Part shown: positions 16,494 to 61,642 of the stretch, piece by piece
Layout of the letters: each line of letters begins with the position of its first letter
Position numbering within the stretch: the first letter of the stretch is position 1
Program-made: the position numbers and the translations under genes
Notes under the pieces: model-generated
Told to the model about the DNA's origin: nothing
Seen by the model: the letters and a program-made list of their open reading frames with translations, nothing else
Database searches by the model: none
Origin: Pseudomonadota bacterium
GTDB lineage: Bacteria > Pseudomonadota > Gammaproteobacteria > Burkholderiales > Burkholderiaceae_C
NCBI GenBank assembly: GCA_040387875.1
Contig: JAZKCX010000039.1
Span: 2,127 to 66,126, forward strand
Reading direction: 5' to 3'
DNA length: 64,000 nt

Positions 16494-17354
16494 ATGTCCT
16501 CTAAAGCATCTATCCAGACCGTCGGCATCATTGGCGCAGGCACCATGGGCAATGGCATTGCGCAGGCCTGCGCGGTGGCCGGCATCCATGTGGTGATGGT
16601 CGATATTTCCGAGGCCGCCGTTGCCAAGGGTGTGGCCACGGTGGGCAGCAGCCTGGACCGGCTCATCAAGAAGGAAAAGATGACGGCGTCCGAAAAAGAC
16701 GCTGCGCTGGCACGCATCCAGGGCTCGACCCGCTACGAAGACCTGGCCTCGGCGCAACTGGTGATTGAAGCGGCCACCGAGAACTTCGACCTCAAGGTCA
16801 AGATTCTGAAACAGCTCGACAGCATGCTGCCGGCCGAGGTGCTGATTGCGTCGAACACTTCGTCGATCTCCATCACCAAACTGGCGGCGGTGACCAGTCG
16901 GCCCGAGCGTTTTATCGGCATGCATTTTTTCAACCCGGTGCCGATGATGGCGCTGGTGGAAATCATCCGCGGCCTGCAGACCAGCGACGCCACCCACGCG
17001 GCGGTGCAGGCGCTGGCCGTGGCACTCGGCAAGTCGCCCATCACCGTGAAGAATGCGCCGGGCTTTGTGGTCAACCGCATTCTGGTGCCCATGATCAACG
17101 AGGCACTGTTTGTGCTGGCCGAAGGCCTGGCCACGCCGGAAGACATCGACGCGGGCATGAAGCTGGGCTGCAACCAGCCGATTGGCCCGCTGGCACTGGC
17201 CGACATGATTGGCCTGGATGTGTGTCTGGCGGTGATGGAGGTTTACCTGAACGAGTTTGGCGACTCCAAATACCGCCCCTGCCCGTTGCTGAAGGAAATG
17301 GTGGCCGCCGGCCGCCTGGGCCGCAAGACCGGCCGCGGCGTTTACAGCTACTGA
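16494..17354 (+). CDS. hbd: 3-hydroxybutyryl-CoA / 3-hydroxyacyl-CoA dehydrogenase
   Basis: GIIGAGTMGNGIAQ NAD-binding fold, SNTSSISIT, GMHFFNPVPMM and PGFVVNRIL are present. I chose the internal ATG at 16494. Confidence 0.9.
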   Translation: MSSKASIQTVGIIGAGTMGNGIAQACAVAGIHVVMVDISEAAVAKGVATVGSSLDRLIKKEKMTASEKDAALARIQGSTRYEDLASAQLVIEAATENFDLKVKILKQLDSMLPAEVLIASNTSSISITKLAAVTSRPERFIGMHFFNPVPMMALVEIIRGLQTSDATHAAVQALAVALGKSPITVKNAPGFVVNRILVPMINEALFVLAEGLATPEDIDAGMKLGCNQPIGPLALADMIGLDVCLAVMEVYLNEFGDSKYRPCPLLKEMVAAGRLGRKTGRGVYSY

Positions 17355-18256
17355 ACTTCGGACACCGCGGCCGTATGCGCCGCTGGTTGGAAGCGCGCGC
17401 GCAGATCGGCCAGCCCCAGCTCGCCGAGCAGCTGCTCCAGCCGGGCTGACGCACTGCGGCGCGGGCCGCTATGGCGCGTAGCGATGATGAGTTCGTTTTT
17501 CATCGAATGCTCCCAGCCCACCAGCTCGGTGACTGTGACCTGGTAGCCGCTGGCCTCCAGCTGCAGGCAGCGCAGCACGTTGGTGATCTGGCTGCCAAAT
17601 TCGCGGGTGTGCAGAGGGTGCCGCCAGATTTCACTCAGCGGCGTGCGCGACAGTTGCAGTGCCTTGTGCTGGCGCAGCACACCCGCCACCTCGGCCTGGC
17701 AGCAAGGCACCAGCACCATGAAACGCGCGTTCTTGTGCAGCCCAAAACGAATCGCGTCGTCGGTGGCGGTGTCGCAGGCGTGCAGCGCGGTGACCACATC
17801 CACCTGCGCCGGCAACTCCGGCGCCACCATGGATTGCTGCACCGACAGATTCAGAAAATCCATGCGCGCAAAACCGAGTTGCGCCGCCAGCGCCTTGGAT
17901 TTTTCTACCAGCTCAGGCCGCGTCTCTATGCCCACAACGCGGCCAGCGCTCAGGGCCTTGAAAAACAGGTCGTACAGAATGAAGCCGAGGTAGGACTTGC
18001 CGGCGCCGTGGTCTACCAGCGTGCCATCACCGCGTTCGTCCAGCACCTGCTGCAGCAAAGGTTCGATGAACTGGTAGAGGTGGTAGACCTGCTTGAGCTT
18101 GCGGCGCGAATCCTGGTTCAGCTTGCCGTCGCGGGTGAGGATGTGCAGCTCCTTGAGCAGCGCAATCGACTGGCCGGCGCGCACCTCGGGCAGGCCCGGT
18201 ACCGCCATATTGGCAGCGGGCGGAGTGGCAGGCGGTTTTTCTTTGGTGCGGGGCAT
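17348..18256 (-). CDS. class I SAM-dependent methyltransferase (family uncertain)
   Basis: A VDHGAGKSYLG (GxGxG-like) SAM-binding loop is followed by an acidic loop. The length is 302 aa. Confidence 0.6.
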   Translation of the reverse strand: MPRTKEKPPATPPAANMAVPGLPEVRAGQSIALLKELHILTRDGKLNQDSRRKLKQVYHLYQFIEPLLQQVLDERGDGTLVDHGAGKSYLGFILYDLFFKALSAGRVVGIETRPELVEKSKALAAQLGFARMDFLNLSVQQSMVAPELPAQVDVVTALHACDTATDDAIRFGLHKNARFMVLVPCCQAEVAGVLRQHKALQLSRTPLSEIWRHPLHTREFGSQITNVLRCLQLEASGYQVTVTELVGWEHSMKNELIIATRHSGPRRSASARLEQLLGELGLADLRARFQPAAHTAAVSEVQ

Positions 18257-18311
18257 GCGGTCATCATAGGCGACACCCCGGCAACATCTGGTGGAAATCG
18301 CTTACCCACTA

Positions 18312-18336
18312 TTTCAATTGCACACAATTTAATTGC
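18312..18336 (+). promoter_or_regulatory. candidate OhrR operator
   Basis: An AT-rich palindrome CAATT-T-AATTG (18325-18335) and a CAATTG palindrome (18315-18320) lie 18-40 nt upstream of the ohrR start. Confidence 0.4.
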
Positions 18337-18352
18337 CAGCTACAATCAGTCC

Positions 18353-18802
18353 ATGCCCACCGCCACGATGACGCCCGAAGAAGCCCTGTTGCTGGACAAC
18401 CAGCTCTGTTTTGCGCTGTATTCCAGCTCGCTGGCCATGACCAAGCTGTACAAGCCGCTGCTGGAGCCGCTGGGCCTGACCTACCCGCAGTACCTGGTGA
18501 TGCTGGTGCTGTGGGAGCGCGATGGCCTGGGCGTGTCAGAACTGGGCGAGCGCCTGTTTTTGGATTCCGGCACCGTCACCCCACTGCTTAAACGCATGGA
18601 GGCCGCCGGCCTGCTACAGCGGGTGCGTGCCAGCGACGACGAGCGCAAGGTGCTGGTCACGCTCAAGCCGCAGGGCCGCAAGCTTAAGACCAAAGGCGTA
18701 AAAATTCCTGGCTGTGTGGCCAGTGCCAGCCAGTGCGCACTGCCTGAGTTGCTGTCGCTCACCGCCCGATTACAAACCCTGCGCGGCAAACTGTCGCGCT
18801 GA
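18353..18802 (+). CDS. ohrR: MarR-family organic hydroperoxide resistance regulator OhrR
   Basis: [11 protein letters not shown] carries the sensing Cys. A winged-helix MarR core is present ([35 protein letters not shown]). The gene lies directly upstream of ohr. Confidence 0.85.
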
Positions 18803-20458: not shown

Positions 20459-20563
20459 GGGCGCCCGCAGCAGAAGCGGAACTATGTCACGGTCCTCCGG
20501 GAAGGCACCAACATCCGGCAAACGCATACTTCCGTATTATTGGGAGCTCTCACAAGGATTTGT

Positions 20564-22057
20564 ATGGCTTCCACCCCAGAAACGCCTGCCCTCGTTCCTG
20601 CTTCGTCCCCGGGCACCGCGCCTTTGGTGGCCCAGGCGGCCACTCCGCCCGCGCCGGTGGCACCTGTGCTGGTCACGCCCAATACGGCGGTGCTGGGCGT
20701 GTTGTCCGGCATTGCGCCCGGCACCGAAGTCTTCCGTGGCGCGGCGCGGTTTGCGCCCGAACGGCTGGAGCCCCTGTTTGCCGGTGACCGCCTCACGGTT
20801 CCTGCGGGCGGCGCAACCAACGTCACTTTCTACGGCCAGGGCGTGAACAAAACCCCGGTCAACGGCGTCTTCTACGGCGGTACCGACGCCGTGCTTACAG
20901 CAGCCTCGGTGTCGCCCGGCGTTCGCCAGTTGCAGGTAGAACTCAGCAGCGGCGACCTGCTGGTCGCGGTGCCCGAAGCCGCCGACACCGGCGCCGTGGC
21001 CGTGGTCAAAAAAGGGGCTGCTGCAGCGGCGGCGTCCGGCGGCAGCGGGCTGGCAGACAACGCCGGCTTGCTGGGCCTGTTTGCCCTCGCCAGCGGGGTG
21101 AGCGGCGGCGGTAGCAGCGATTCGACATCGGACAGCGGCGGTTTTTCTGCCAGCGATTCGGGCAGCACCTCCTCCTTCAACAGCTCAGGCAATTCCGACA
21201 GCACCGCTTTCGCGCCTGCGGACACCTCCAACAACACGGGCGCCAGCCCGCCCGCCAGCACCGCCGATCCGGTAGCCGGCAACGAAGAGGCCACACCGCC
21301 CGATGCATTGGGCGATGAAGGTGGCAGCGTAGTGGGCGACTTGACTGGCGCCCTGCCCGGCGCCGAAGGCGAAGAAGGCGCCGAGGGCGGCAGCCCGCTG
21401 GACGCTTTGACTGGCGGCCTCGGAGGTGAAGGCGGCGGTCCGCTCGGCGCTTTGACCGGTGGTCTGGGTGGCGAGGGTGGCGGCCCACTGGGCGCCCTGA
21501 CGGGCGGCTTGGGTGGCGAAGGCGGGAGCCCACTGGATGCCCTGACCGGCGGCCTCGGTGGCGAGGGTGGCGGCCCGCTCGGCGCGCTGACCGGCGGCTT
21601 GGGCGGCGAGGATGGCGGCCCACTGGGCTCCGTGACCGGCTTGCTCGGTGGTGAAGGCGGCAGCCCCTTGGACGCTTTGACTGGCGGCCTGGGCGGCGAA
21701 GGCGGTAGCCCGCTAGACGCCCTCACGGGTGGCTTGGGTGGCGAGGGCGGAAGCCCACTGGATGCCCTGACCGGCGGCCTGGGCGGTGAAGGCGGTGGCC
21801 CGCTGGGCCCGGTGACTGGCTTGCTAGGTGGTGAAGGCGGCAGTCCTCTGGACGCACTGACCGGCGGCCTCGGTGGTGAAGGTGGCAGTCCGCTGGGCGC
21901 CTTGACTGGCACCAACCCGCTCAGTGGCGGCGTTACCAATGCGCTGCCTGTCGGTGAGGCCGGTGGGTTAGTCGACGACGGAATGTTCTCTGGCGGTCCG
22001 CCTCCCGTAGGCAGCATGCCCCCGCAACAGGGCGACCCTTTTACTGGATTCGGTTAG
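20564..22057 (+). CDS. repetitive Cys-free acidic protein, paralog P1 of the T1SS-linked cargo family
   Basis: The ATG at 20564 has an AAGGA Shine-Dalgarno sequence 5 nt upstream. The N-terminal 150 aa aligns with the proteins at 57881-59755 and 60224-61642 (GVLS..G.E..RG..R....L..GDR..VP.GG.ANV.F...P.NGVF.GG..AV...SPGV.Q..V....GD..VA.P). A KK-hydrophobic segment follows, then a Ser/Asp-rich tract, then 12 tandem 15-aa Gly-rich repeats. Confidence 0.75.
   Translation: MASTPETPALVPASSPGTAPLVAQAATPPAPVAPVLVTPNTAVLGVLSGIAPGTEVFRGAARFAPERLEPLFAGDRLTVPAGGATNVTFYGQGVNKTPVNGVFYGGTDAVLTAASVSPGVRQLQVELSSGDLLVAVPEAADTGAVAVVKKGAAAAAASGGSGLADNAGLLGLFALASGVSGGGSSDSTSDSGGFSASDSGSTSSFNSSGNSDSTAFAPADTSNNTGASPPASTADPVAGNEEATPPDALGDEGGSVVGDLTGALPGAEGEEGAEGGSPLDALTGGLGGEGGGPLGALTGGLGGEGGGPLGALTGGLGGEGGSPLDALTGGLGGEGGGPLGALTGGLGGEDGGPLGSVTGLLGGEGGSPLDALTGGLGGEGGSPLDALTGGLGGEGGSPLDALTGGLGGEGGGPLGPVTGLLGGEGGSPLDALTGGLGGEGGSPLGALTGTNPLSGGVTNALPVGEAGGLVDDGMFSGGPPPVGSMPPQQGDPFTGFG
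21386..21910 (+). repeat. about 12 tandem 45-bp coding repeats (GGSPLDALTGGLGGE units) inside P1
   Basis: Counted by hand from the translation (aa 283-457 of the 505-aa ORF). The units differ by synonymous and G/S, D/G substitutions. Confidence 0.9.
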
Positions 22058-48319: not shown

Positions 48320-50281
48320 CTACGCCAGCGAACGGAAAAGCGCCTCGAGCTTGCGCGCAGACTCTGCGGGGTTGGTGGCGGGGCTGTCTTCCAGCCGCTG
48401 CCGCATGCCCTGGCGCAGTGCTTCGAGTTCCTGCGGATGGCTGGCGTAGTGTTTGCAGCGGGCCACATATTCGTCGGTGCTGTGGGCGACCAGCTCGGTC
48501 AACGCCAGCGAAGTAAGCAGCGAAAGACTCACGCGCGAGACGTGGGTCTTGCCGGCCAGGGTGATCACGGGAATGCCCATCCACAGCGCCTCGATGGTGG
48601 TGGCGGTGCCGTGGTAGGGATAGGGGTCCAGCGCAATATCGGCCTGCTGGTACAGCGCCAAGTGCTGCGCAAAACCCATGCGCGCGTGCATCTGTACCCG
48701 GCCCAAATCAAAACCCATGCGCTCAAAACGCTGCAGTTGCTCGGTCTTGAGCACCGCGTCGGACAGCGGCGCGGCTTTCACAATCAGCCGGGTCTCGGGC
48801 ATCTCCTGCATGATGCGCGACCACAGCGCCAGGGTCTCATCGGACAGCTTAGCGAGGTTGTTGAAGCTGGCCAGCGTGAGGTAGCCGTTGCGCAGCAGCG
48901 GTGTGGGCCCGCAGGGCGGCAGTTCGGGTGGCTTGCGGATACACAGGAAGGGCGCCGGCATGCGCAGCAACTTTTCTGAATGGATCGCATCGGCCAGCTC
49001 GGGCGGGTCGGCAATCGCATCCGAGATGCGGTAGTCCATGGTCGAAAGACCCGTGGTGTTGGGATAGCCCAGGTAAGTCATCTGCACCGGCGCCAGACGC
49101 TGCCCGAAAATCGGCAGGCGGCTGTCGCCTGTATGGCCCGACAGGTCGATCAGCACATCGACCTTGTCGGCAACAATCTGCGCCGCAAGTTCTTTGTTGC
49201 TGCTGCGGCCCAGCTCGCGCCAGCGGTCGCCAAAATGCTGCTTGAGCTGCTCGGTCAGGCCGTCCGACTTGTCTCCGGCGTTGTAGAGCACGATATCGAA
49301 CTGTTTGCGGTCGTGCTGCATCAGCACCGGCGCAATGATCTGGCCGACCGGGTGCTGGTAGAAATCGGGGCTGACGTAGCCCACGCGCAGCTTGCGCTTG
49401 CCGAGGGCGAGCTTGGGTTTGGCAACCGCATCCGCCGTACCGGTGTGCCAGCCACGCGTCCACGCGACGTGTTCGCTGTAGATGTAAGCCGGGTCGTGCG
49501 CCTGGTAGTTGAGCATCAGCAGGTAGTTGGACACCGCCGTGGTGTTGGACGGGTTGCCCTGGGCACTGGAACGGAACAGCTCGGTGGCACGCGCAATATC
49601 GCCATTGCGGTAACACATGCCGCCCAGAAAGGTGCTTGCAGGCGTGTAGTCGGGAAACTTTTCCAGGCACTCGGTCCAAAGCGCCCGCGCTTCGGCGAGC
49701 TGGCCGGTTTCCTGATGGGCCCGGCCCAGCAGAAAGTAGCTGCGGTCGGAGTGTTCCGCCGCATGGAAGACCTTGCAAAAAGGCAAGGCATCGCTCCAGC
49801 GGTTTTGCCGGGCCAGGAGCTCGATCAGGTTGGACTGCGCCAGCCGCATGCCGGGCTGCAGGATAACGGCCTCGGTCAGGTGTTCCAGCGCTGCTTCAAA
49901 CTCGTGCAGTTCGGTCAGCACATAGCCCAGGTTGTTACGGGCCTGGCCCACCTCAGGCCGCAAGGCCACCGCACGGCTGTAGCACATTTTGGCGGCGGGG
50001 AAATCACGCAGCGTCGAATAACAGTTGCCCAGCGACAGCACTGCGTCGTAGCCCAGCTTGTCCTGGTCAAACAATGGCCGCAGCAAAAAGATCGCGTCTA
50101 CCGAGCGACCATTTTTGTTGAGATAGTCCGAGAGTGCGGCATGCGCTTCGGTGTTGTCCGGAGCGAAGGCGAAGGCCCGCAGGTAGGCAGCCTTGACGCT
50201 GTCAATGGAGGTGCCAGGCTGCTGCGACAGGCGCCGGGCCTGCAGCAGTGCCGCCGCAAAGCGTACTTCGTCGTTGTTCAT
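48320..50281 (-). CDS. TPR-repeat protein with a C-terminal GT41 (SPINDLY/OGT-type) glycosyltransferase domain
   Basis: The N-terminal ~280 aa are TPR repeats. The C-terminal half is collinear with OGT catalytic lobes ([75 protein letters not shown]). Confidence 0.8.
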
Positions 50282-50515
50282 GCGTTGGTGTCTGATGAAG
50301 CAGGTGAACGGGGTGGCGGGCACACGCCCGCGTGCCCCCGCCTGCCATTATGCGGACTTCGCAACCAGTGTTTTGCCTGCGTGCCAGCGCCACCGCAGCG
50401 GCCAAAAAAATCCTGTAAGAAAGGGCGGCCTGTCCCTACAAAGAAGCACCGCAACCTGAATGATCAGTACCGTGCGGTGTCGTTCAGTCATCTCAATTTC
50501 CTATTGGAGTTTTCA

Positions 50516-50875: not shown

Positions 50876-52600
50876 ATGCCTAAAAACCTCTACTCCCTGA
50901 CGGTGCCACACGCCGGTTTCGGTCTGGGTTTGCGAACCACCCACTACCCCGATTTTCTTGCATGCAGGCAGCCACTGGACTGGCTGGAAATCATCACGGA
51001 CAACTACCTGGTGGATGGCGGCAAGCCGCTGGTGACGCTGGACGCGATCCGCCGCGACTACCCCCTTGCCATGCATGGCGTGGCCCTGTCACTGGGTGCG
51101 CCTGCGGGCCACGACCGCGCCTATCTGAAGAAGGTCAAGGCGTTGGCAGACCGCATTGATCCCCTCTGGATTTCCGACCACCTGTGCTGGATCGGGCCGG
51201 AGCCGCAGCAACTGCACGACCTCTATCCCCTGCCTTACACCGAAGAAGCCGCACGCCACCTGATAACGCAGATCCGCCAGGTCCAGGACGTATTGCAGCG
51301 CCGCCTGGTAGTGGAGAACGTCTCCAGCTACATTGATTTCGCCTACTCGGCAGCCACCGAATGGGAGTTTCTGAGCCATATCGCGAACGAGGCCGATTGT
51401 TCCCTGCTGGTCGATATCAACAACATCTATGTCAGCAGCGTGAACCACGGCTTTGACCCCCTCGCCTATTTGCGTGGCCTGCCGGCGCAGCGTATTCAGC
51501 AGTTCCATCTGGCTGGCCATTCCAACGAGGGCACCCACATTGTTGACACCCACGACCACCCGGTGGCCGAGCCCGTGTGGGAACTCTACGCGCAGGCGTG
51601 CCAGATGTTTGGCCCAGTGACCACCATGATCGAGCGGGACGACCACATCCCGCCTTTGCGGGAGTTGATTGAAGAGCTGGACCGTGCCCGTGGCATTGCC
51701 GCCGCCCTGGAGAACGAACAGCCCCGCAGCGCGTACCATGCCTCGGCGTTGCGCTGGGCTGCGCCCCTCGCAGCACAAGACCCGGGCTTGCAGGCAATGC
51801 GGCAGCGCATGGCCACCTACGTCTTGGGCCCCGCTAACGGCACCGAAGCCATGGCGCCTATGGTGCGCCAAGCGCCGGGTGTGGATGTGCCTCTGCGCCT
51901 TTCCATCTACCACCACGCCTACCGCGCCCGGCTGGCCGAAGTGCTGGCGGACACCTTTGAGAAAACCGTGCTCTATATGGGCTCGGACAGTTTCACGCAG
52001 CATGCCCGTACGTTTGCGGAGCAAAACCCGCCGCTCACCCGAAGCCTGGGTCGGTACGGCGCGAGCTTTCCGGCCTACCTGGCGGCGCTTTATCCCCACA
52101 ACCCGGAGTTGCGCGAGCTGGCCTACCTGGACTGGGACTTGCGCAGCTGTTTTGACGGTGCCGATGCGCCCGCCCTGGATGCGGCGGCCGCGGCGGCCGA
52201 CGCACAGCAATCGTGGTTGCTCCATACGCCCGCAATACACCCCAGTCTGGTGCTGCGCGAAATTACCAGCAACGTGGTGCAGCTCTGGAAGTCCATCGAC
52301 GAAGACCAGGAGGTTCCCGCACCGGTCTATCGCGATACCCCCATGGCTTTGGCAGTCTGGCGCAAAGGGCTGCAGCCACACTTCAAAACGGTAGAGGGCA
52401 TGCAGGCCGTCTGGCTGCGCCGGCTGATGGCAGGTGCGTCCCTGTCGCAAGCCTGTGGTGAATTTGAGGGCACAGAGCACATGCCTGAGATCGCCGTATT
52501 CGGCCAGTGGCTGGCTGAATGGCTGGAAGACGAACTGCTGAGCCCACCACCGCTGCTGCAGCCATTGGCACACGCTGCAGCAGCAGAAGCCGTCAGTTAA
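50876..52600 (+). CDS. fused DUF692 (MNIO, MbnB/BufB-like) and DUF2063 (MbnC/BufC-like) protein
   Basis: Residues 1 to about 285 are DUF692-like (GFGLGLRTTHY, LEIITDNY, HGVALSLG, SDHLCW, ENVSSY, DINNIYVS, FHLAGH, IERDDHIPPL). Residues from about 310 to the end are DUF2063-like (RLSIYHHAYRARLAEVLADTF, RSLGRYGASFPAYL). The ORF is continuous at 574 aa. Confidence 0.8.
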   Translation: MPKNLYSLTVPHAGFGLGLRTTHYPDFLACRQPLDWLEIITDNYLVDGGKPLVTLDAIRRDYPLAMHGVALSLGAPAGHDRAYLKKVKALADRIDPLWISDHLCWIGPEPQQLHDLYPLPYTEEAARHLITQIRQVQDVLQRRLVVENVSSYIDFAYSAATEWEFLSHIANEADCSLLVDINNIYVSSVNHGFDPLAYLRGLPAQRIQQFHLAGHSNEGTHIVDTHDHPVAEPVWELYAQACQMFGPVTTMIERDDHIPPLRELIEELDRARGIAAALENEQPRSAYHASALRWAAPLAAQDPGLQAMRQRMATYVLGPANGTEAMAPMVRQAPGVDVPLRLSIYHHAYRARLAEVLADTFEKTVLYMGSDSFTQHARTFAEQNPPLTRSLGRYGASFPAYLAALYPHNPELRELAYLDWDLRSCFDGADAPALDAAAAAADAQQSWLLHTPAIHPSLVLREITSNVVQLWKSIDEDQEVPAPVYRDTPMALAVWRKGLQPHFKTVEGMQAVWLRRLMAGASLSQACGEFEGTEHMPEIAVFGQWLAEWLEDELLSPPPLLQPLAHAAAAEAVS

Positions 52601-54314
52601 TCAGCGGCCGGTAGTAATTGGCCGGTGGCGGAGCAACGTCTTCGACCGGCGGCCGGGACTCCACAGGCGGAGGCGGCTGCACCGCAGGCCGGAATTCGCG
52701 TGCCGGTGGCGAGCTGACCAGCGGCCGCAACTCGACCGCTGGCCGGGGTGGTACGGGTGCCGCCAGGCGAGGCTCAATGTCCAGCGCGGCCACCGGTGCG
52801 CCAAGCGCGGAGCTGCGCTTGAGCACCGGACTGCGTGGTTCTGGCGGGAGGGGCACCGAAGCCGTGTTGCAGTTGGCGTTGTCGGTACGGCAGACCGACT
52901 CGCGCAGGCTTTCTGAAAATATGTCGTTGGCATCGGCTTTGGACACCACGCTGTGAATCCAGCCGTTGTCGCTGACGCCATCGACCAGCAACCTGCCGGA
53001 AGTCCTGGCCAGCCGGAATTCGGCAATGCGCAGATCAAACACGCCGTCTGCCAGATCCAGCAGCAGATTGAAATGCTCAAGCTGAGCGTCCAGCACATTG
53101 GGCAGTGTTTCGCGGCCAAACCCGAGCAGCCGGCGTTTGGACTGGTAGGCGAGACCCGCCTCGCTCACCGCTTCCATCAGTTGCTTGACCCGATCCGCGC
53201 CGGAAGAGGTACGCCCCCAGGAAGCAGATGTCACCTCCACCAGATTGGCGCGCGCAGCCTCCAGCCGGGCCTCTTGTGCGCCTACTTCCACCAGCGCCGC
53301 CTTGATGCGCGACTGCACATCAAAGCCGTTACCCAGGTTGAAGTTCAACTCCAGCGCTGCCCGCGTGGGCTCGGTTGTCAGGTCGCGGTTGTCTTTGGTA
53401 CGGGACACCACTGCATCCAGCGTGGGAAAGCGGCCGGATTTTTCACGGTCCACGTTCGCCTTGGCGCGCTCTATGCGGCCGCGGGCCTCGCCCAGCTCGG
53501 CGCTGTTGGCCTCGGCAATCTGAATGGCCTGGGCCAGCGAACCCACCGCCCACTCCTTGGGCGTGGCCAGCGTCGGCAACCCGGCGGCATTGGGCACAAA
53601 CTTGAAATAGGTTTCAAACTTGGCCAGCGCATCGATCAGCAGGGCATCAAATTCCTGCCGCTTGGCGGCTGCGCCCGACCGGCGCGATGCCGCAAGGCGC
53701 GCATCACCCTGACCGGCAGCACCCAGCTCGACCTTGCGCTGTTCGGCGCGGGTCAACTCATCAAGAACCAGCGTGGAGCGGGCGGCAATGCGCTTTTTCA
53801 GATCAAAGCGCTGCACCTGGAGGTAAGTCGTGATGCCATCAAGCACCACCTTCTGGCTGGCAACCCGCAAACCCTCTTCCAGCGCACTGGAGTTGGCAGT
53901 GGCAGCCCGCTCGCGGGCATTGATGCCACCGGCATCCAACAGGCTGACCCGCGCGCTGGCGGTCAGGGCTGTAAAGCGCTGCGAGGACGTGTTGCCGGGA
54001 GACGTAAAGGTGCTGGAGCGACCGGTCGCAGTGGCCAGTGAAAAACGTGGAAACCGGGCCCGTTTGGCGGCTTCGGTCTCAAACCCGCTGCTGGCCAGAC
54101 TGGCCTGCGCGGCCAGAACCTCGGGATGGTCCTGGGCCATATTGAGTATGCCCAGCTTGACCTTGTCCGAGTACTCGACCGTACCCAGCGAACGGCCTGA
54201 GAGTGTGGTGGAGGGCGCCAGAACCGGCGCGCCATCGTCCTGCGCATGCGCGTTGAGGGCGGCCACGAACAGGGCAACCGCAAGATGCAGCGGAGAGGGT
54301 CTGAACACGTTCAA
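52593..54314 (-). CDS. TolC-family outer membrane protein of the T1SS, with a 90-aa Pro-rich C-terminal extension
   Basis: The TTG start overlaps the MFP stop (TTGA). A signal peptide ends in AHAQ, and two TolC repeat halves are present. The tail is rich in Pro and Arg. Confidence 0.85.
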   Translation of the reverse strand: MNVFRPSPLHLAVALFVAALNAHAQDDGAPVLAPSTTLSGRSLGTVEYSDKVKLGILNMAQDHPEVLAAQASLASSGFETEAAKRARFPRFSLATATGRSSTFTSPGNTSSQRFTALTASARVSLLDAGGINARERAATANSSALEEGLRVASQKVVLDGITTYLQVQRFDLKKRIAARSTLVLDELTRAEQRKVELGAAGQGDARLAASRRSGAAAKRQEFDALLIDALAKFETYFKFVPNAAGLPTLATPKEWAVGSLAQAIQIAEANSAELGEARGRIERAKANVDREKSGRFPTLDAVVSRTKDNRDLTTEPTRAALELNFNLGNGFDVQSRIKAALVEVGAQEARLEAARANLVEVTSASWGRTSSGADRVKQLMEAVSEAGLAYQSKRRLLGFGRETLPNVLDAQLEHFNLLLDLADGVFDLRIAEFRLARTSGRLLVDGVSDNGWIHSVVSKADANDIFSESLRESVCRTDNANCNTASVPLPPEPRSPVLKRSSALGAPVAALDIEPRLAAPVPPRPAVELRPLVSSPPAREFRPAVQPPPPVESRPPVEDVAPPPANYYRPLIN

Positions 54315-55642
54315 GGCTCCTGGAATGCTTCACGCTGGGCCTTCAGCACCGGCCTGAGAATGTACCAAATGAAGGGGTCACGCCCGACCAGCAGATCGAC
54401 CTCAACCTCCATACCCGCCGTGATGGCCCGCTCGGGAATGCCCACGTACTCCTTGTCGGTACTGATCAGCAGCCGGTAGTAGGAGCGCACAGTGGGGTTG
54501 GTCGGGTCGCTGTCGGCATCGGCACCGACAAGGTTGACTTTCCCATTCACCGCGCCATAGCGCAGGAAATCGTAGGCGCTCACTTTGACGCGTGCTGTCT
54601 GTCCGGTGTTGACATAACCACGGTCACTGGGATTGAGCTTGGCTTCGATGATGATCTGCTTCTGGTCAGGCACCACTTCCATGATCTGCTCACCCGGCTT
54701 CACCACCCAGCCCGGGCTGGGGTTGCGCAGCCCCTTGATGATGCCGTCGGCCGACGCGCGCACGACCGTGCGCGAACGCTGGATTTTGGCACGTGAAAGG
54801 TCTTCGCTCAGACTCGCAATCTGCCGCTCGGCAGTGGCCAGTTCGTCAGAGGCTCGCCGGCGGTAACGGCCCTGCGCCTCGACAATTTTGCCTTGCGCTT
54901 CCGTAATGGCGGAACCGGCAGAGACCAACGCCTGCCGGGCGGTAGCAAGGTCGCCCCGTACGGCCTCCATCTGGCGCTGCTTTTCCAGGACCTCGAGTTG
55001 CGGAATCAGTTTTTCGTCCAGCAGTTGCTGGGACAGATCGACTTCTTTTTTGTAGAGCGCCAGCCGCGACGTCAGCCCATTGACCCGCTCCTGCTGCTCG
55101 ACCAGCTTGCTGCGGGCCTGCGCCAATTGCGACTCTGCGGTGTCCACCACGCCTTTTTGCTCCAGCGAGCGGGCTTCAAAAGCGCCCGATTCGGCCTGGA
55201 AGACCGATTCGTCAATGTCTTTGCCCAGCGCCGCGCGGGTAAAAGGTTTGCCCTGGCTTTCGGCCAGCAGGCGCGTACGCGTGGCCTGCAACGAGGCGTA
55301 GCGAACCGTCAGTTCTTCGAGGTTCAGGCTGTTACCGCCCAGATCAATTTCTACCAGCGGTTGGCCCGATTTGACTTTTTCACCTTCCTTAACAAGTACC
55401 GCACTGACAATACCACCCTCCAGGTGCTGCACCACCTTGACCTGGTCGGAGGGAATCACTCTGCCCGGCGCAATCACCACCGACTCCACCGGGAACCCCA
55501 GACCGAACGCGGCGAGAACAACCACCCCGCCCCACAAAAGCCATGAGGTGATGGATTTTTTTCTGGAATAGGGAAGCGCTTTGGTGGAGCTTGCAGGATT
55601 CTGCAAAACCAGCGGGAGGGTATTGGCGTTCTTGGAGTCCAT
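54311..55642 (-). CDS. HlyD-family type I secretion periplasmic adaptor
   Basis: An N-terminal TM, the HLEGGIV motif, a long coiled coil and a C-terminal barrel are present (443 aa). Confidence 0.9.
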   Translation of the reverse strand: MDSKNANTLPLVLQNPASSTKALPYSRKKSITSWLLWGGVVVLAAFGLGFPVESVVIAPGRVIPSDQVKVVQHLEGGIVSAVLVKEGEKVKSGQPLVEIDLGGNSLNLEELTVRYASLQATRTRLLAESQGKPFTRAALGKDIDESVFQAESGAFEARSLEQKGVVDTAESQLAQARSKLVEQQERVNGLTSRLALYKKEVDLSQQLLDEKLIPQLEVLEKQRQMEAVRGDLATARQALVSAGSAITEAQGKIVEAQGRYRRRASDELATAERQIASLSEDLSRAKIQRSRTVVRASADGIIKGLRNPSPGWVVKPGEQIMEVVPDQKQIIIEAKLNPSDRGYVNTGQTARVKVSAYDFLRYGAVNGKVNLVGADADSDPTNPTVRSYYRLLISTDKEYVGIPERAITAGMEVEVDLLVGRDPFIWYILRPVLKAQREAFQEP

Positions 55643-55676: not shown

Positions 55677-57530
55677 TCAGCTGTCCGCCGGCTCGGCAGG
55701 CGCAGAGGATTTCGGCGCGGCAGAAATTGCTGCGGTTGCCGCAGGCGCCGGCAACTTGACGCCGAACAGCTTGGGCACCATCACCGATGCGGAGCCACTC
55801 TCGACATTGCCCGCCCCGGTGACGTAATGCACCTGGCTGGCACTGGCCACAATACGCAGCGAGTGCGTCACCACAATGATGGTGCGGCTGCGGGCCGCAG
55901 CCATCAGCGCGGCAATCAGCGCCGTCTCCGCCTGGTAATCCAGGTCATTGCTGGGCTCATCCAGAATCACAACAGCCGGATCGCGCAGGAACAACTGGGC
56001 CAGCGCAAGCTTGCGGCGTTCACCCATGGACAGGCCCATGCCGCCCTCACCCAGCACCGTGCGGTATCCTGCTGGCAAGCGCGAAATAAAGTCGTGTGCA
56101 CCGGACAGGCGGCAGGCTGCAACAATTCTTTCGTCGGTCTGGTCGGGGGCGGCGCGGCGGAGGATTTCAATCAGCTCTCCGCCAAAAAGATATACCTCTT
56201 GCGACAGGATACTGATCCACTGAACCAGCTCTTCCCGGGCAAACTGCGACAGGTCATATTCATCAACCGAGATTTTTCCGTTGGTGGGGCTATACAGGCC
56301 CGCAACCAGTTTGACCAGCGTAGATTTGCCGGCGCCGTTTTTACCGACAATCACATGCAGACCACCGGGCCCGATTTCGAGATTGACGTTCTCCAGCACG
56401 GAGGCGGAGTTTTCGTTGAACTGAAAGCTGACTTCCTGCAGCCGGATTGCCCCGCGCGGCTTGGGCAACACAATGCCACCCGGGCGGCGATCCGTTGGTT
56501 CATTGAAGACGTTTTCAAGCCGCTTTGCGGCCTCGGTGGCGGTTGCAAGAGATCGCCAGTTGGAAGCCAGCCCCGCGACGGGAGACAGGGCTTTGGACGA
56601 CAACATGCTGGCGGCAATCAGACCGCCGACAGTCATCCATTGCTGCATGACTGCCAGAGCCCCGACCGACACCACCACAACGGAGAAAACCGACAGCATC
56701 ACAGTGGTCAGCTCCCGGGCGCGCTCTATCTCGCCGTTTTTTCGGAAACTCTCGCTGAGCCAGGCGTTGTAGTTCTGTTGCCACATCGCTACGACAGGCT
56801 GGTTGTGCCCCAGACTTTTCAGGGTTTCACGGGCCCGGCAAATCTCTGACGTCACCTGGTCCAGGCTACGTCCGCGGAGCACTTCTTCGACACGCCCGGC
56901 GCGTACTTCATCAGCCCACCACCAGGCAAAAAACGCAAGTACTCCCAAAAACAGCAAAAGCACTGGCAACAGCGGCCATGCCACCATGCCAATAATGACG
57001 AGTGCAAAAAGAGCCACGGGCATGTCAAAGATGGAGGTCATCAGCCCACCGGTCACTGTTGCACGCACTGCGCCCACGTCGCGGAACAACAAAAACCATG
57101 CTGTGGCAGGCCGGGACTCCAGCATGCGCAAAGGCCGCTGCAGCATGGACTGCAACAAGGCGTTCGACACCCCATGGTCAACAATTGCGCCGGCATCGCG
57201 CAGCGACCGGGACCGCTTATTGCGCAGCCACAACTCAATCAGCAAAAACACAAAAATACCGGCCAGCAGGGCGACCAGTGTGGAGTAGCCACTGCGACCA
57301 ATCACGCGGTCGTACACCTGTAGCGTGAAAATTGACGGCAACAACCCGAACAGACTGATGGGCAGCGACCACCAAGCCGCCTGCTTCACCAAGGGGTAGG
57401 CACTGGTAAATGCGTCGTGCAGCGCGCCACCGTAGGGAGTGACCGCAGAGTCGGTAGCCGTCTTGTTCACTAACTGACGGGGCAACAGGAATTTGAGCAT
57501 GGTTGTTACAGGAAGATAGTCGAGCGCCAA
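55677..57530 (-). CDS. type I secretion system ABC permease/ATPase (PrtD/HasD-like, no C39 peptidase domain)
   Basis: The TMD carries LQVYDRV. Walker A GKNGAGKST, signature LSMGERRK, Walker B VVILDEPSNDLD and H-loop VTHS are present. The maximal ORF starts at TTG 57530, and the first ATG is at 57500. Confidence 0.9.
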   Translation of the reverse strand: MALDYLPVTTMLKFLLPRQLVNKTATDSAVTPYGGALHDAFTSAYPLVKQAAWWSLPISLFGLLPSIFTLQVYDRVIGRSGYSTLVALLAGIFVFLLIELWLRNKRSRSLRDAGAIVDHGVSNALLQSMLQRPLRMLESRPATAWFLLFRDVGAVRATVTGGLMTSIFDMPVALFALVIIGMVAWPLLPVLLLFLGVLAFFAWWWADEVRAGRVEEVLRGRSLDQVTSEICRARETLKSLGHNQPVVAMWQQNYNAWLSESFRKNGEIERARELTTVMLSVFSVVVVSVGALAVMQQWMTVGGLIAASMLSSKALSPVAGLASNWRSLATATEAAKRLENVFNEPTDRRPGGIVLPKPRGAIRLQEVSFQFNENSASVLENVNLEIGPGGLHVIVGKNGAGKSTLVKLVAGLYSPTNGKISVDEYDLSQFAREELVQWISILSQEVYLFGGELIEILRRAAPDQTDERIVAACRLSGAHDFISRLPAGYRTVLGEGGMGLSMGERRKLALAQLFLRDPAVVILDEPSNDLDYQAETALIAALMAAARSRTIIVVTHSLRIVASASQVHYVTGAGNVESGSASVMVPKLFGVKLPAPAATAAISAAPKSSAPAEPADS

Positions 57531-57880: not shown

Positions 57881-59755
57881 TCAGCGGTCCAGCAAACCAC
57901 CCAGTGCACCAGTGACAGGGTTGGCTTCTGCGCCGCCCAGGCTGGTCACGGGGATAGGCAGGCCACCGCCCAAACCACCACCCAGCGACCCAAGCAGATC
58001 GCCCGGGATCAGGTCCGTTGGTACCGGCAGGCCACCGCCAGCTCCGCCCAGAGAACCGACCAGCTCAAGAACGGGTTCGAGCAAGCCGCCCGCGCCGCCT
58101 GTGAGCAGATCGGTAGGTACAGGCAGGCCACCAGCGCCGGCGCCCAGCAAGTCGGTAGGAACCGGCAAGCCCCCACCGCCCAGCGAGCCGAGCAGGGAAG
58201 TCAGCGGGCCGAGAGCGCCGCCGGCATCACCACCCAGCAAGCCGCCGAGACCACCCAAACCACCCGCGTCAAGCGCGCTTGCGCCCGTGGTTGCGCCGCC
58301 GCCGATGACGCCGCCACCCAGCAGTGCAAGAACCGGCGCAAGGAGGCCGCCACCGTCAAGCGAACCGGTACCGCCGAGCAGACCGCCAAGCAGGTTGCCG
58401 CCCACCTGTGCGCCGCCTTCGCCACCACCTGCGCCAACGCCGCCGGAGACAGAGCCCAGACCGCCATTGAGGAAGTTGCTCAAACCGTTTGTCAGCTGAT
58501 CAACCTGCAGATTCGCGGGTCCGATCAGCGATTCCGTAGCGCCTTCGCCCAGGATTCCGTCGACGATGGGTTGCAGAACATCGTTGCCTACGGAGGTGAC
58601 GCTGAAGCCCAAGTTGTCCACCGGGTCGAGCTGATTGGGGGCGTCGAATCCAGGGTCAATACCGAGGGACTCGGTGATGTCGTTACCAGTGTCCGTAACG
58701 GTTTTGACCAGATCGTCCAGAGGTTGCAGCGAACCACCGATGCCAGCGCCTGCAGCGCCCAGTGCACTGCCGTCCAATGCATCGGTCAAGTTGTCGACCA
58801 ACTGCGCCGTAGGATCCAGGAGACCAGGCTTTTGCGCACCTGGACCGGTACCCGTACCGGTGCCGGAGCCAGTGTCCGTACCGGTATTGGTACCCGTATC
58901 GGTTCCCGTGTCTGTACCGGTGTTGGTTCCAGTATTGGTGCTGGTGTTAGTGCCCGTATCGGTACTGGTATTGGTTCCGGTATTGGTGCTCGTGCTCGTG
59001 CCAGTACTGGTACTCGTGCTCGTATTCGTACCAGTGTTGGTGCCCGTGGTAGTACCGGTGCTGGTGCCGGTATCCGTACCCGTGTTCGTGCCCGTGTTGG
59101 TATTGGTGCTTGTGCCCGTGCCTGTACCGGTCGCTGTTGCGGTGCTGGTATCTGTGCCGGTTCCAGTGCTGGTGCCCGATCCCGTACCGGTTCCGGTGTT
59201 GGTGCCGCCCGAGCCGCCGTCGTCGTCATCGTTCAGCGCAGCGGCCAAACCGGCCAGACCCAGAAGTGCCAGAGGCAACCATCCCAGACCTTCGGTACCT
59301 GCAGCGCCCTTTTTCTTCACAGCAACCGATGCGGCATCGGTGGCGTCGGGTGCGGCCACGAACAGGTCGCCCGTGGCCATATCGACCGTCACTTGCTCAA
59401 CACCGGGGGACAGCGTCTTGACACCAATAACCGCATCCGATCCACCGGAGAAAACGCCGTTCAACGGGGTTTTGCTGCCGCCAGGGCCGGGGAAAGTTAC
59501 GTTGGCCGAGCCGCCTTGCGGAACAATAACGCGGTCACCAGCCAACAGCGAAGTATTTCCTTCGGCCGCAAACCTTGCGCTTCCGCGCACAACTTCCACG
59601 CCGGGAGTAGCACCAGACAGAACGCCTAAGCCTCCCGCCTGAGAAGCTGCTACGGGAGCGGCAGACGCGGCAGCAGGGCTTGCCTGGGCGAGGGTCGTGA
59701 TGTCTTCACCAGCGGTCAACGGGCCTTTCAGGCTCGTTTCTTGAGTTGCGATCAT
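57881..59755 (-). CDS. T1SS-linked repetitive Cys-free acidic protein, paralog P2
   Basis: The ATG at 59755 is preceded by AAGGA. There is no signal peptide. The layout is: conserved N-terminal domain, KKK-hydrophobic-DDDD segment, a 119-aa X-Thr array, an acidic D/L-rich domain shared with P3, then a Gly-rich C-terminus with [10 protein letters not shown] repeats. Confidence 0.8.
58847..59203 (-). repeat. X-Thr dipeptide array in P2 (60 consecutive units, 6-nt period)
   Basis: Hand check of aa 196-314 of the 635-aa ORF. Every even position is Thr, twice Ser, with no register shift. The odd positions are only G, N, S, D, A or T. Confidence 0.9.
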
Positions 59756-60137
59756 AAAAAATCCTTTGGAAAGCAGGATATGGGGCACTAAAACAATGCC
59801 TTGATTATAGTTATCGGGCAGGGAGTGGAGAAACTTTAATGCTTTTGTTTATGGCAATTCTCATCAAATTGTGTGACTTAATTCATGAAATCGATTGCAA
59901 AGTATCTACCCGCTTGTCCCAGAGAGGGATTTAGTCACCGATTAGGGTAAAGTTTAAGTGGGGCAGATGGTTGGAGTAATACTAATGTTTGGAGAGCCAA
60001 AACCGGCACCCCAAAAGCCCGCCATGGCAGTGTTTCTAAAGGGTGAAACTCGATGCTGCAACAGGCTTGGATGGCCAAAGCAGGAGTTCAGCGTCGACCT
60101 ATTAAAAGCATTACTTCAAAAGCACAAAACAAAATGC

Positions 60138-60166
60138 AAAATGGCTGCCTACGAGGCAGCCATTTT
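60138..60166 (-). terminator. rho-independent terminator after cargo gene P3
   Basis: The sequence AAAATGGCTGCCT-ACG-AGGCAGCCATTTT lies 58 nt downstream of the P3 stop. Confidence 0.6.
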
Positions 60167-60223
60167 GGCGAGAAGACAAAGCGCACCAAACCTATGTGAA
60201 ATTTGCGTGCGCCAAGCCTCGAT

Positions 60224-61642
60224 TTACAACATCGACAATATGGGCGCCAGCGGAGATGGGTTGCTGGCCGCATCGGTGGAGCTGGAGATTGGCGGTATGG
60301 CCCCTGGCGTGCTGCCGTTGCCGGACACGTTCTCCACAAACTCGGAGCCTGAACCCACAACCACGCCAGGTGTGTTTTCTCCGGTCGCGGTATTTCCAAG
60401 GGCACCCACCGGCGCCAAAACGCTACCAGCACCGCCCAAACTACCGAACATGCCGGTCAGCGGCCCCAGCAAACCACCCACTCCTGCAGTCTCGCCCACA
60501 CCCAGCAGACCCGAAGAGCCCAGCGCGTTGGTCAGCCCATCCGTCACGAAATCGACCTGCAGGTCTGCGGGACTGATCAGGGTTGCCGTTACGCCATTGC
60601 CCAGGATGGAATCCACCAGCGGAGTGACCGGAACAGACACCACGCCGCCGGTGACATCCGCGGCAAGTGCATCCACTGAATCCAGAGAGTTGGGGTCATC
60701 GGCAAAAAACTCTTCGCCAACGACAGGCGCCAACAGGCCGTTGCCAGCATCGGTAACCGATGCAACCAAGTCATCTACCGGTTGCAAAGATGTACCCAAA
60801 CCACTTGCCAACCCGCCGAGCTCCGCTTTTGCGGCGCCGTCGGCCGGCGCTTCTGCAGCGCCGCTGGGCCCTTCAAGGGCATCGGTCAGATTGTCAACCA
60901 GCGTCGCGGTTGGATCGAGGAACCCCATGCCCTCTGCACCCGTCCCCGTATCGGTGCCAGTTCCGGTCCCGGTATCGGTGCCAGTCCCGGTGCCCGTGCC
61001 AGTGTCCGTACCAATTCCGGTTCCGGTATCCGTGCCAATACCTGTGCCCGTACCCGTATCGGTGCCAACACCGGTACCCGTGCCAGTGCCGGTGTCGGTA
61101 TTGTCCCCACCGCCTCCACCACTACCAGCGAGACCGGCCAGTCCAAGCAAGCCCAAAGGCAGCAGCCAACCCAGCCCGCCGTCGGCCACAGCAGCCTTTT
61201 TCCTGACCAGCAAGGACGACTCGATCTGGGTGAAATCCGGGGGAGCAACAATAAAGTCACCAGCAGCCAGGTCAACCACCACCTGGTCAACACCCGGGGC
61301 AATGGTCTTGACGCCGATCACCGCCTCAGAACCACCAGAAAAGACCCCCACCAAAGGATTGGGATTGCTGGCAGAAGCGGGAAAAGCCACATTGGCCGAC
61401 CCACCTTCGGGCACGATGACCCGGTCACCCAACTGCAGCGCAGCGGACCCTTCGGCAGGCAAGCGGGTTCCTCCGCGGACGATTTCCACGCCCTTAGAGG
61501 CATCGGACAGCACGCCCAGCATGGGCACCGCCTGGGGGGTTGCCGCAGCCGTAGCAGCAGGGGCAACCGCAGCCTGCGCCACCAAGGCATCCAGGCCTGG
61601 TGAGCTTAGAACTTCGGCACTCGTATTAGGGGTAGATTCCAT
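60224..61642 (-). CDS. T1SS-linked repetitive Cys-free acidic protein, paralog P3
   Basis: The ATG is preceded by an AAGAGG Shine-Dalgarno sequence. It has the same architecture as P2: N-terminal domain, RKK-hydrophobic-GGGGGD segment, a 54-aa X-Thr array, the shared [14 protein letters not shown] domain and a Gly-rich tail. Confidence 0.8.
60941..61102 (-). repeat. X-Thr dipeptide array in P3 (27 units)
   Basis: aa 181-234. The even positions are Thr, apart from V192, I202 and I210, which are also beta-branched. Confidence 0.85.

Follow-up and report, generated by a model that had tools for sequence, protein, structure and literature searches.

A conserved hydrophobic segment of transmembrane length in putative type I secretion cargo of Burkholderiaceae

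What becomes of a protein that looks like cargo of a type I secretion system (T1SS) when, within its chain, it carries a hydrophobic segment long enough to span a membrane? The question is raised by a 64,000-nucleotide stretch of contig JAZKCX010000039.1 (positions 2,127 to 66,126 of the forward strand; assembly GCA_040387875.1, a Pseudomonadota bacterium of the GTDB family Burkholderiaceae_C), which we refer to as the window and number from its first letter. The window encodes three paralogous proteins, P1, P2 and P3, and an earlier note, made from the letters alone, described such a segment directly after the N-terminal domain (N-domain) of each. Natural retention of T1SS cargo has been well described in one form only, the periplasmic plug of giant RTX adhesins that is released by LapG. 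We find that the segment is a real, conserved and family-defining feature, and that a stalling or anchoring role, one of the two readings offered in the earlier note, would be the best though unproven account of it. Most likely, the helix formed by this segment helps to hold the proteins of the family in the cell envelope, in a manner undescribed for such cargo.

The hydrophobic segment and its conservation

Re-translation returned the segments of P2, P3 and P1 exactly as they had been described, with the P1 version again the weaker one, and fixed their coordinates. In P2, 59219-59317 read on the minus strand gives precisely the reported 33 residues, and the plus strand gives an unrelated string. 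The segment opens with a basic hinge, KKKGAAGTE (59291-59317, minus strand), in which the end of the last N-domain strand passes into a Gly/Ala hinge closing in an acidic residue. A hydrophobic 19-mer follows (59234..59290, minus strand; Kyte-Doolittle 19-window mean 1.86, rough Hessa sum +1.6), which AlphaFold2 (AF2) predicts as a helix at a low predicted local distance difference test score (pLDDT) of ~50, and directly C-terminal to it stands the acidic patch NDDDD (59219..59233, minus strand). The uncharged span between E155 and D176 comprises 20 residues, so the length of 18 first proposed for the helix has to be corrected.

The known transmembrane (TM) helices of the window's own ATP-binding cassette (ABC) exporter and Liv-type permeases have Kyte-Doolittle means of 1.5-2.8. 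Measured against these, P2 (1.86) is TM-compatible, P3 (1.51) is marginal and P1 (1.21) lies below the line, as it does with respect to the usual 1.6. We rejected a DNA repeat artefact as the source of the P2 segment, the only repeat inside it being one of 9 bp (2.1 copies, score 31). Also dropped was an AxA-like signal peptidase site at the end of the helix, which by eye was indistinguishable from Ala/Gly/Ser-rich composition.

P3 (60224..61642, minus strand; 472 aa) is encoded directly upstream of P2, and the relative P0012 is the same protein with a later start. Its hydrophobic segment of 19 residues (61124..61180, minus strand; Kyte-Doolittle mean 1.51), in which AF2 places a helix at residues 160-174, is preceded by RKKAAVAD (61181-61204) and followed by the remaining 10 residues of the reported segment (61094-61123). 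P1 is encoded away from the T1SS, on the plus strand (20540..22057), in a 505-aa open reading frame (ORF) for which the start used by relatives is probably the ATG at 20564; its weak segment, NAGLLGLFALASGV, lies at 21059..21100 of the plus strand, with a Kyte-Doolittle mean of 1.21 and a rough Hessa sum of +7.2. A fourth paralog, a 753-aa open frame, is found outside the window in the same genome (contig C146:1754-4012, plus strand) and has its own version of the helix, SLGLAALGLGGLAAL.

A word-based search brought up 13 relatives, and an exhaustive profile search of 1.84 billion representatives yielded 48 family members at E <=0.001. The family is small, and every titled locus belongs to a Burkholderiaceae/Comamonadaceae genome; one member is carried by the cultured Comamonas sp. 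BIGb0124 (locus L017). The proteins are ~350-1600 aa long, with 1-6 paralogs per genome. Segment statistics were measured by script on 51 non-identical proteins of at least 340 aa with a full N-domain match. Fragments, exact duplicates and P0055-P0057 (weak unrelated or fragmentary matches) were left out of this set, as were P0009 and P0010, where the script window caught a later stretch and where, by eye, both proteins carry the P0011 segment.

An uncharged span occupies the same place in all 51 proteins and is 16-30 residues long (median 21; 16-26 residues in 49 of the 51). Its Kyte-Doolittle 19-window mean reaches at least 1.6 in 43 of them. The 15 residues before the span are net positive in 39 and the 15 residues after it net negative in 47, and the N-side is the more positive of the two in 48. 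The segment is of TM length and of merely moderate hydrophobicity.

When 59 distinct segments were aligned, a common pattern emerged: an acidic residue, often next to F, Y or W, at the N-edge, then L-x-A-L...G-L/V-A-G-L-A-A, then small residues and finally a DD cluster. An aromatic residue (F, Y or W) marks the N-side boundary in most of these segments, and V-x-K-K before it is conserved, V and the first K each reaching at least 70%. The conservation of certain Gly, Ala and Leu positions suggests that the helix packs against other helices. Beyond the acidic patch the spacer is fully exchanged among members (X-Thr, poly-Pro, PTDPTN repeats or DA repeats) and the helix is constant. Even the distant long members of genomes G154, G318, G476 and G237, with ORFs of 1199-1383 aa, keep the D/E-[FY], the Gly/Ala/Leu-rich span and the acidic cluster.

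Around the segment, P2 is built as follows. Its coding sequence (57881..59755, minus strand) gives 624 aa from the ATG at 59755; the longest ORF, 57881-59788 on the same strand, begins with a GTG at 59788, and we infer the start from the homolog P0003 and from the ATG that relatives use. A leader of 41 aa (59633..59755), which lacks a signal-peptide-like hydrophobic core (12-residue hydrophobicity maximum 1.00) and carries the family motif (L/V)(L/I)AQA, precedes the predicted all-beta N-domain (59318..59632). After the acidic patch come an X-Thr low-complexity linker of ~132 aa (58823..59218), in whose place relatives have Pro-rich or PT-rich spacers, and an acidic helical module that is conserved in the alignments (58448..58822; LLDPT...LVDNLTDAL...NPNxLDxVD...LQVDxxTDGL). 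The Gly/Leu-rich C-terminal region (57884..58447) ends in the conserved family tail (57884-57922), a putative T1SS signal. In relatives the leaders are variable (5-90 aa) and share (L/V)(L/I/V)AQA 15-25 residues before the beta domain.

The N-terminal fold and the secretion neighbourhood

The N-domain of P2, mostly above pLDDT 85 in AF2, has a predicted fold like that of RIN, the plug of the retention module of RTX adhesins. Two models were made. The first, of the N-terminal 149 residues with an alignment of 10 sequences, gave a confident all-beta domain and a low-confidence helix (~50) over the hydrophobic segment. The second, of full-length P3 with 33 sequences, gave an N-domain with a pLDDT of ~95, an unpacked helix at residues 160-174 (pLDDT 41-49), a helical-hairpin module at residues 235-380 (pLDDT 85-94) and a disordered spacer and tail. 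The best solved match of both was 5IX9, with VIA-align Z scores of 8.3 and 8.1, 72 of 76 residues aligned and a root-mean-square deviation of 2.3-2.4; the next matches had Z scores of 5.2 and 6.0. Foldseek matched the two models to 5IX9 with probabilities of 0.97 and 1.00, yet with E-values of 0.69 and 0.048. 5IX9 is RIN, the N-terminal domain of the Marinomonas adhesin MpIBP, described in PMC5550230 as a periplasmic plug of the TolC pore. Judging from these models, the N-domain of the family shares the RIN fold, a Z of ~8 being middling on the tool's own scale and thus indicating a shared fold, not proven homology. The nearest named cluster in the ESM Atlas, a 'retention module-containing protein (fragment)', scored 0.87, under the 0.9 line, and is a lead only.

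The C-terminal helical module gave generic long-helix structural matches only (Z <=6). For P3 residues 235-380 (~60500-60940, minus strand) the weak neighbours included the alpha-barrel hairpins of the outer membrane factors VceC, CusC, TolC, MtrE and NodT (Z 5-6), which are probably generic as well.

Directly downstream of P2, on the same strand, lie three genes that together make up a T1SS. The first (55677..57530) encodes an ABC exporter of 617 aa with the Pfam domains ABC_tran and ABC_membrane. Its alignment to LssB and HlyB profiles starts no earlier than positions 140-147, and that to PrtD at position 11, with all scores below the curated cut-offs; since the LssB/HlyB alignment begins only at about position 140, the exporter lacks an N-terminal C39 or C39-like domain. 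The second gene (54311..55642, minus strand) encodes a HlyD-family periplasmic adaptor (TIGR01843, 341 bits vs a cut-off of 208.65), and the third (52593..54314, minus strand) a TolC-family outer membrane channel (Pfam OEP, 107 bits; TIGR01844, 116.5 bits, below its cut-off). The TolC-like protein has a Pro-rich C-terminal extension of ~110 aa (52593 to ~52930, minus strand) that is partly conserved in orthologs; ordinary TolC proteins have none. A TPR protein of 667 aa is encoded some 2 kb beyond the operon (48320-50323, minus strand). In its C-terminal part there is a weak match to NF049992, the model for protein N-glucosyltransferase (E 1.7e-10, far below cut-off), and it may glycosylate the Thr-rich spacers. 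Just past the P3 stop codon stands a terminator-like hairpin with a 14-bp stem (60137..60167, minus strand; consensus match only). Lying between P3 and P2, it might set unequal expression of the two cargo genes.

We then asked how closely the family follows this transporter. The order cargo, ABC, adaptor and channel recurs at loci L001, L006, L007, L009 and L017, and L002 is cut by a contig end. Among 301 genomes of the same GTDB family, the N-domain was found in 11 (E <=1e-8), an ortholog of the ABC exporter in 13 (E <=1e-100) and both in 10; the carrier genomes are kin, so that these are not counts of independent events, and some may equal the titled loci. The N-domain stands alone in G339 (65% complete), and the exporter stands alone in G315 (87% complete) and in G320 and G471 (both 52% identity). 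Wherever cargo and exporter share a contig, the cargo gene lies upstream on the same strand (7 of 7 genomes). No family cargo was found at the G320 locus (L054, ABC ortholog at 52% identity), where an AceK-like gene and a permease, both unrelated, lie upstream.

In L050 (G154) and L051 (G318) two overlapping ORFs take the place of an intact ABC ortholog, which could reflect a frameshift or a sequencing error, and these systems may be decaying. Several distant systems have an ORF of ~1000 aa between the cargo and ABC genes (L050:5516-8497, plus strand; L052:7547-10684 and L053:7065-10178, both minus strand; L017, ~16500-18550). After an N-terminal stretch of ~600 aa, its C-terminal part resembles MurF (Mur_ligase_M and Mur_ligase_C; scores under the NCBIfam cut-offs), and the product could modify the cargo. 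The sole match to it in the genome of the window has 28% identity over ~480 aa (contig C70).

The proteins themselves also look like T1SS substrates. A signal-peptide-like leader was found in none of the 52 relatives with a called Met start, none of which reaches a 12-residue hydrophobicity of 2.2. Cysteine is absent from 48 of 55 family proteins, most of the exceptions being six-frame ORFs that may include upstream sequence, and the isoelectric point is ~4.05-4.75. At the extreme C-terminus a tail of the (N/S)PLxGLLxxL type is conserved, and the sequence before it is variable. The tail is a plausible T1SS secretion signal, and P1-P3 together with the C146 paralog are very probably cargo of the adjacent ABC-HlyD-TolC system. 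Scans with Pfam and NCBIfam found no named domain in P1-P3, RTX repeats included. In the relative P0034 a Calx-beta domain follows the spacer (40.8 bits vs a cut-off of 27).

Given the fold match, we compared the family with canonical retention modules, using 23 loci that score above the 50-bit cut-off of NF033682 (retention_LapA) in 201 genomes of the order. These modules show the helix, the TAAG site, the poly-Gly stretch and the FVRL motif. In the 190 residues scanned after the plug core, none of the 23 has a comparable uncharged span directly after the plug; their best 19-window means are 0.36-1.87, and the case of 1.87 lies ~115 residues further on, in the following region. NF033682 itself matched none of P1-P3 at E up to 1 and none of the 6 scored candidates in their own genome. 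A search of that genome, at 76% completeness, found no LapG (PF06035), and the family does not conserve the dialanine site (GAAG in P2, KAAV in P3, none in P0007, P0013 or P0015). On these two grounds we reject control of the family by LapG.

Sub-threshold matches to NF033682 (profile positions 3-68) were seen in proteins of 216-561 aa at L044-L049. At L045-L049 the match is preceded by an N-terminal signal-peptide-like stretch and, by eye, a FecR-like pattern, which suggests a relationship between the plug fold and the first half of the periplasmic FecR domain.

Where the helix may come to rest

Stalling of a T1SS is known from an artificial system: in Lenders 2015 (PMC4648471), a rapidly folding N-terminal eGFP stalls the HlyA system with the C-terminus outside the cell. 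If a folded N-terminal domain stalls export, the residues that follow this stopper come to lie at the TM level of the ABC exporter, which leads to a stop-transfer reading of the helix. We tentatively propose that the N-terminal portion of the family proteins is an arrest unit, in which a stopper is combined with a stop-transfer helix of TM length at inner-membrane level. The cargo would be exported C-terminus first. Export would end in arrest by the N-terminal unit, that is, a fast-folding beta-sandwich stopper, the basic hinge, the TM-length helix and then the acidic patch. The helix would rest at inner-membrane level, inside or beside the TM domain of the exporter, with the stopper and KK on the cytoplasmic side and the acidic patch, together with the linker (Pro-rich or X-Thr), facing outward. 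The cargo would thus remain attached to the cell and would not be released. A membrane-level helix with its N-terminus inside and its C-terminus outside (N-in/C-out) would be expected to have what is seen here: bilayer length, charge asymmetry, an aromatic boundary and an acidic exit. With its moderate hydrophobicity the segment might avoid being captured co-translationally while the C-terminal signal has yet to be made.

The family would then be a natural 'stalled' T1SS substrate, tethered from the inner membrane or the exporter through the envelope without a protease, which we regard as somewhat doubtful. If so, this would be a third mode of fixing T1SS cargo, beside release and the LapG-controlled TolC plug. 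Should the helix be an anchor, a stop-transfer-like signal would be able to retain T1SS cargo, a point that matters for the manner and place of export arrest, and surface display by way of a T1SS might gain a compact tag that works without a protease. Searches of the literature aimed at this point, in a limited collection and with particular sets of terms, found among the papers listed no T1SS substrate with an inner-membrane anchor and no retention module with a hydrophobic helix.

Several observations weigh against such an arrest at the inner membrane. The main one is distance: the way from the inner membrane to the cell exterior through the tripartite conduit measures ~210-270 Å. From the end of the helix to the first C-terminal module there are as few as 19 residues (median 52; no more than 63 in 33 of the 44 measurable proteins), and a fully extended linker would cover only ~65-220 Å, so in most members the C-terminal module could not fold outside. 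The known RIN plug of LapA and MpIBP is described as periplasmic, at the mouth of TolC, and not cytoplasmic. The N-in/C-out anatomy assigned in the earlier note stands as to length, helix prediction and charge asymmetry, but it does not extend to every member. Proteins of G154, G318 and G476 lack KK and are acidic on both flanks (G237 retains KKK), and KK is also lost in P0030, P0032, P0040 and P0052; the positive-inside rule fails in such distant members. The insertion energy is marginal as well, with a median of +2.96 kcal/mol and a value of 2 or less in only 15 of the 51 proteins, this being a rough position-independent sum of Hessa-scale values. Finally, the low AF2 confidence of the helix (41-52) carries no information on how it packs.

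The position of the known plug leads to another account, a tether of the LapA kind, which we consider unlikely. The whole N-terminus would cross the inner membrane, and the RIN-like domain would fold in the periplasm and plug the mouth of the TolC-like channel. The slim Gly/Ala/Leu helix would then be the first part to span the conduit, in or at the periplasmic aperture. As the helix would take the place of the targeting helix, TAAG site and poly-Gly of LapA, this tether would be non-cleavable. The fold match to the MpIBP plug fits it, as does the published model, which puts the plug in the periplasm and threads the following segment through TolC. The FecR-like relatives of the fold are likewise periplasmic and have signal peptides, and the canonical modules at L025 and L029 continue into long (TG)n spacers of the same kind as the X-Thr arrays of P2 and P3. 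Lengths agree too: helix and linker together have at least ~40 residues (21 + 19; median ~73), near the 77 flexible residues of LapA (97-173), and come close to the need of TolC, which is 140 Å long. However, a water-filled channel does not explain an uncharged span of ~21 residues with charged edges and a more positive N-side, and none of the 23 canonical modules has one. The exporter without an N-terminal domain, the missing match to the NF033682 hidden Markov model, the absence of any LapG found in the 76% complete genome and the unconserved dialanine also speak against it. A related idea, that KK meets an acidic ring at the TolC aperture, was dropped: a phmmer search with the outer membrane protein against solved structures gave one weak match, 7NG8 (E 9e-6).

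A less probable account is that the T1SS releases the proteins in full and the helix acts later, inserting into a membrane of the own surface, of vesicles or of a partner, or self-associating through its small-residue face. The earlier note had held that T1SS substrates are not expected to contain such a segment. The 23 canonical modules and MpIBP, where none is seen, bear this out for retention modules, but as a general statement it was too strong: according to PMC8953716, RTX cytolysins are T1SS substrates that carry several putative TM helices, which insert into target membranes. It is because of them that late action of the helix can be entertained. Moderate hydrophobicity and conserved Gly and Ala fit a packing or membrane-active helix, and several paralogs per genome with variable C-terminal parts are reminiscent of secreted effectors or matrix proteins. 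However, the family has one helix only, and in P1-P3 neither RTX repeats nor any other Pfam domain turned up. A folded N-terminal beta-sandwich would be expected to stall export, if what PMC4648471 reports applies here, and acidic residues on both edges of the helix would disfavour insertion into anionic surfaces.

We judge it equally improbable that the proteins are ordinary bitopic proteins of the inner membrane, inserted by Sec/SRP, with a cytoplasmic N-domain, the helix as signal-anchor, the remainder in the periplasm and the T1SS as a functional partner. Length, charge asymmetry and acidic patch do match an N-in/C-out signal-anchor, the P2 helix falls within the score range of real TM helices in the window, and proteins that span the periplasm typically have a Pro-rich spacer after the helix. 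However, many members are only marginally hydrophobic, including P1 and P0018 (Kyte-Doolittle ~1.2), and in distant members the N-side lacks positive charge. The tight co-occurrence and operon position with the T1SS, the conserved C-terminus, the acidic Cys-free composition and up to 6 variable paralogs per genome are rather those of cargo. The earlier suggestion that the proteins are merely encoded next to a T1SS is not supported, in view of the exporter's presence in 10 of 11 family genomes, of the synteny in 7 of 7 and of these hallmarks. Should the helix nevertheless prove to be a common Sec anchor, the family would show how risky it is to deduce from operon position that a protein is cargo.

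It is very improbable that the segment has no specific role and is merely a hydrophobic part of a low-complexity spacer, since, for all that its flanks are low-complexity, its P1 version is weak and Gly/Leu-rich C-terminal parts also give hydrophobic windows of 1.5-2.0, its position, length and core pattern are conserved in 59 distinct sequences while the spacer changes completely, and it is not a tandem DNA repeat.

Comparison with known systems

The earlier note also saw a likeness to the hydrophobic core of PEP-CTERM sorting signals. It was right that the segment is internal and that no basic cluster follows; the likeness itself is compositional only. We rejected PEP-CTERM and related sorting signals on account of the internal position, the absence of a PEP motif, the acidic cluster after the helix and the lack of any model match at cut-off. 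The only sorting-signal match was that of the P3 segment to NF041742 (the WGxxGxxG family), at 15.2 bits vs a cut-off of 35, and is a lead only; WGxxGxxG-CTERM is an orphan C-terminal signal described by Haft (10.1101/2023.06.07.544157). Like PEP-CTERM, GlyGly-CTERM and WGxxGxxG-CTERM, the family has a Gly/Leu/Ala-rich helix of TM length beside a charged cluster. Unlike in these C-terminal signals, the segment is internal, with 200-1400 residues following it, its orientation is mirrored, and acidic instead of basic residues come after the helix. The proposed arrest unit would mirror the 'motif - TM helix - basic tail' signals at the C-terminus of proteins that are exported N-terminus first.

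Type II (N-in) signal-anchors, such as those of TonB and anti-sigma factors, share with the family the order in which a basic residue is followed by a helix of ~20 residues and this by a Pro-rich spacer. In the family, however, a plug-fold beta-sandwich of 110 aa precedes the helix, the genes are linked to a T1SS and the proteins bear cargo hallmarks; moreover, hydrophobicity is marginal and the N-flank is acidic in distant members.

With RTX cytolysins, as described in PMC8953716, the family has in common a putative TM helix in the N-terminal part of a T1SS substrate. The cytolysins have several such helices, RTX repeats and acylation, whereas the family has one helix and the other features were not found in it. 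The engineered eGFP-HlyA of PMC4648471 resembles the family in placing a folded N-terminal domain on C-terminus-first cargo; its export is arrested and the chain threaded. It is artificial, however, and lacks a hydrophobic helix, and the stalling of the family proteins is a proposal only.

The closest comparison is with LapA and MpIBP. The family likewise has an N-terminal beta-sandwich of, by the models, the same fold, a gene beside a T1SS and a flexible spacer after the domain. In LapA the plug is followed by the LapG site and a flexible stretch, residues 97-173, and LapA-type ABC exporters form a distinct subclass, according to 10.1101/198937 and PMC13090378. The combination of targeting helix, DP motif and [T/A/P]AAG site with a LapG protease was not found in the family and the 76% complete genome of the window, and the window's exporter lacks the N-terminal C39-like domain of the LapB type. 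P1-P3 also fall outside the RTX adhesin definition used in 10.1101/2025.09.30.679566, as they have no Pfam domain and a C-terminal module predicted to be helical. Unlike LapA and MpIBP, the family has no NF033682 match, no conserved [T/A/P]AAG, no Ig-like extenders and no RTX repeats, and its proteins are small. It shares fold and logic with LapA-type systems and falls outside them by most tests of membership. According to Guo 2017 (PMC5550230), the region after RIN in MpIBP has no TM sequence; in the family, a TM-length hydrophobic helix follows the plug. What is new here is this combination, a plug-like fold and a membrane-type helix on small proteins without RTX repeats, served by an ABC exporter without an N-terminal domain.

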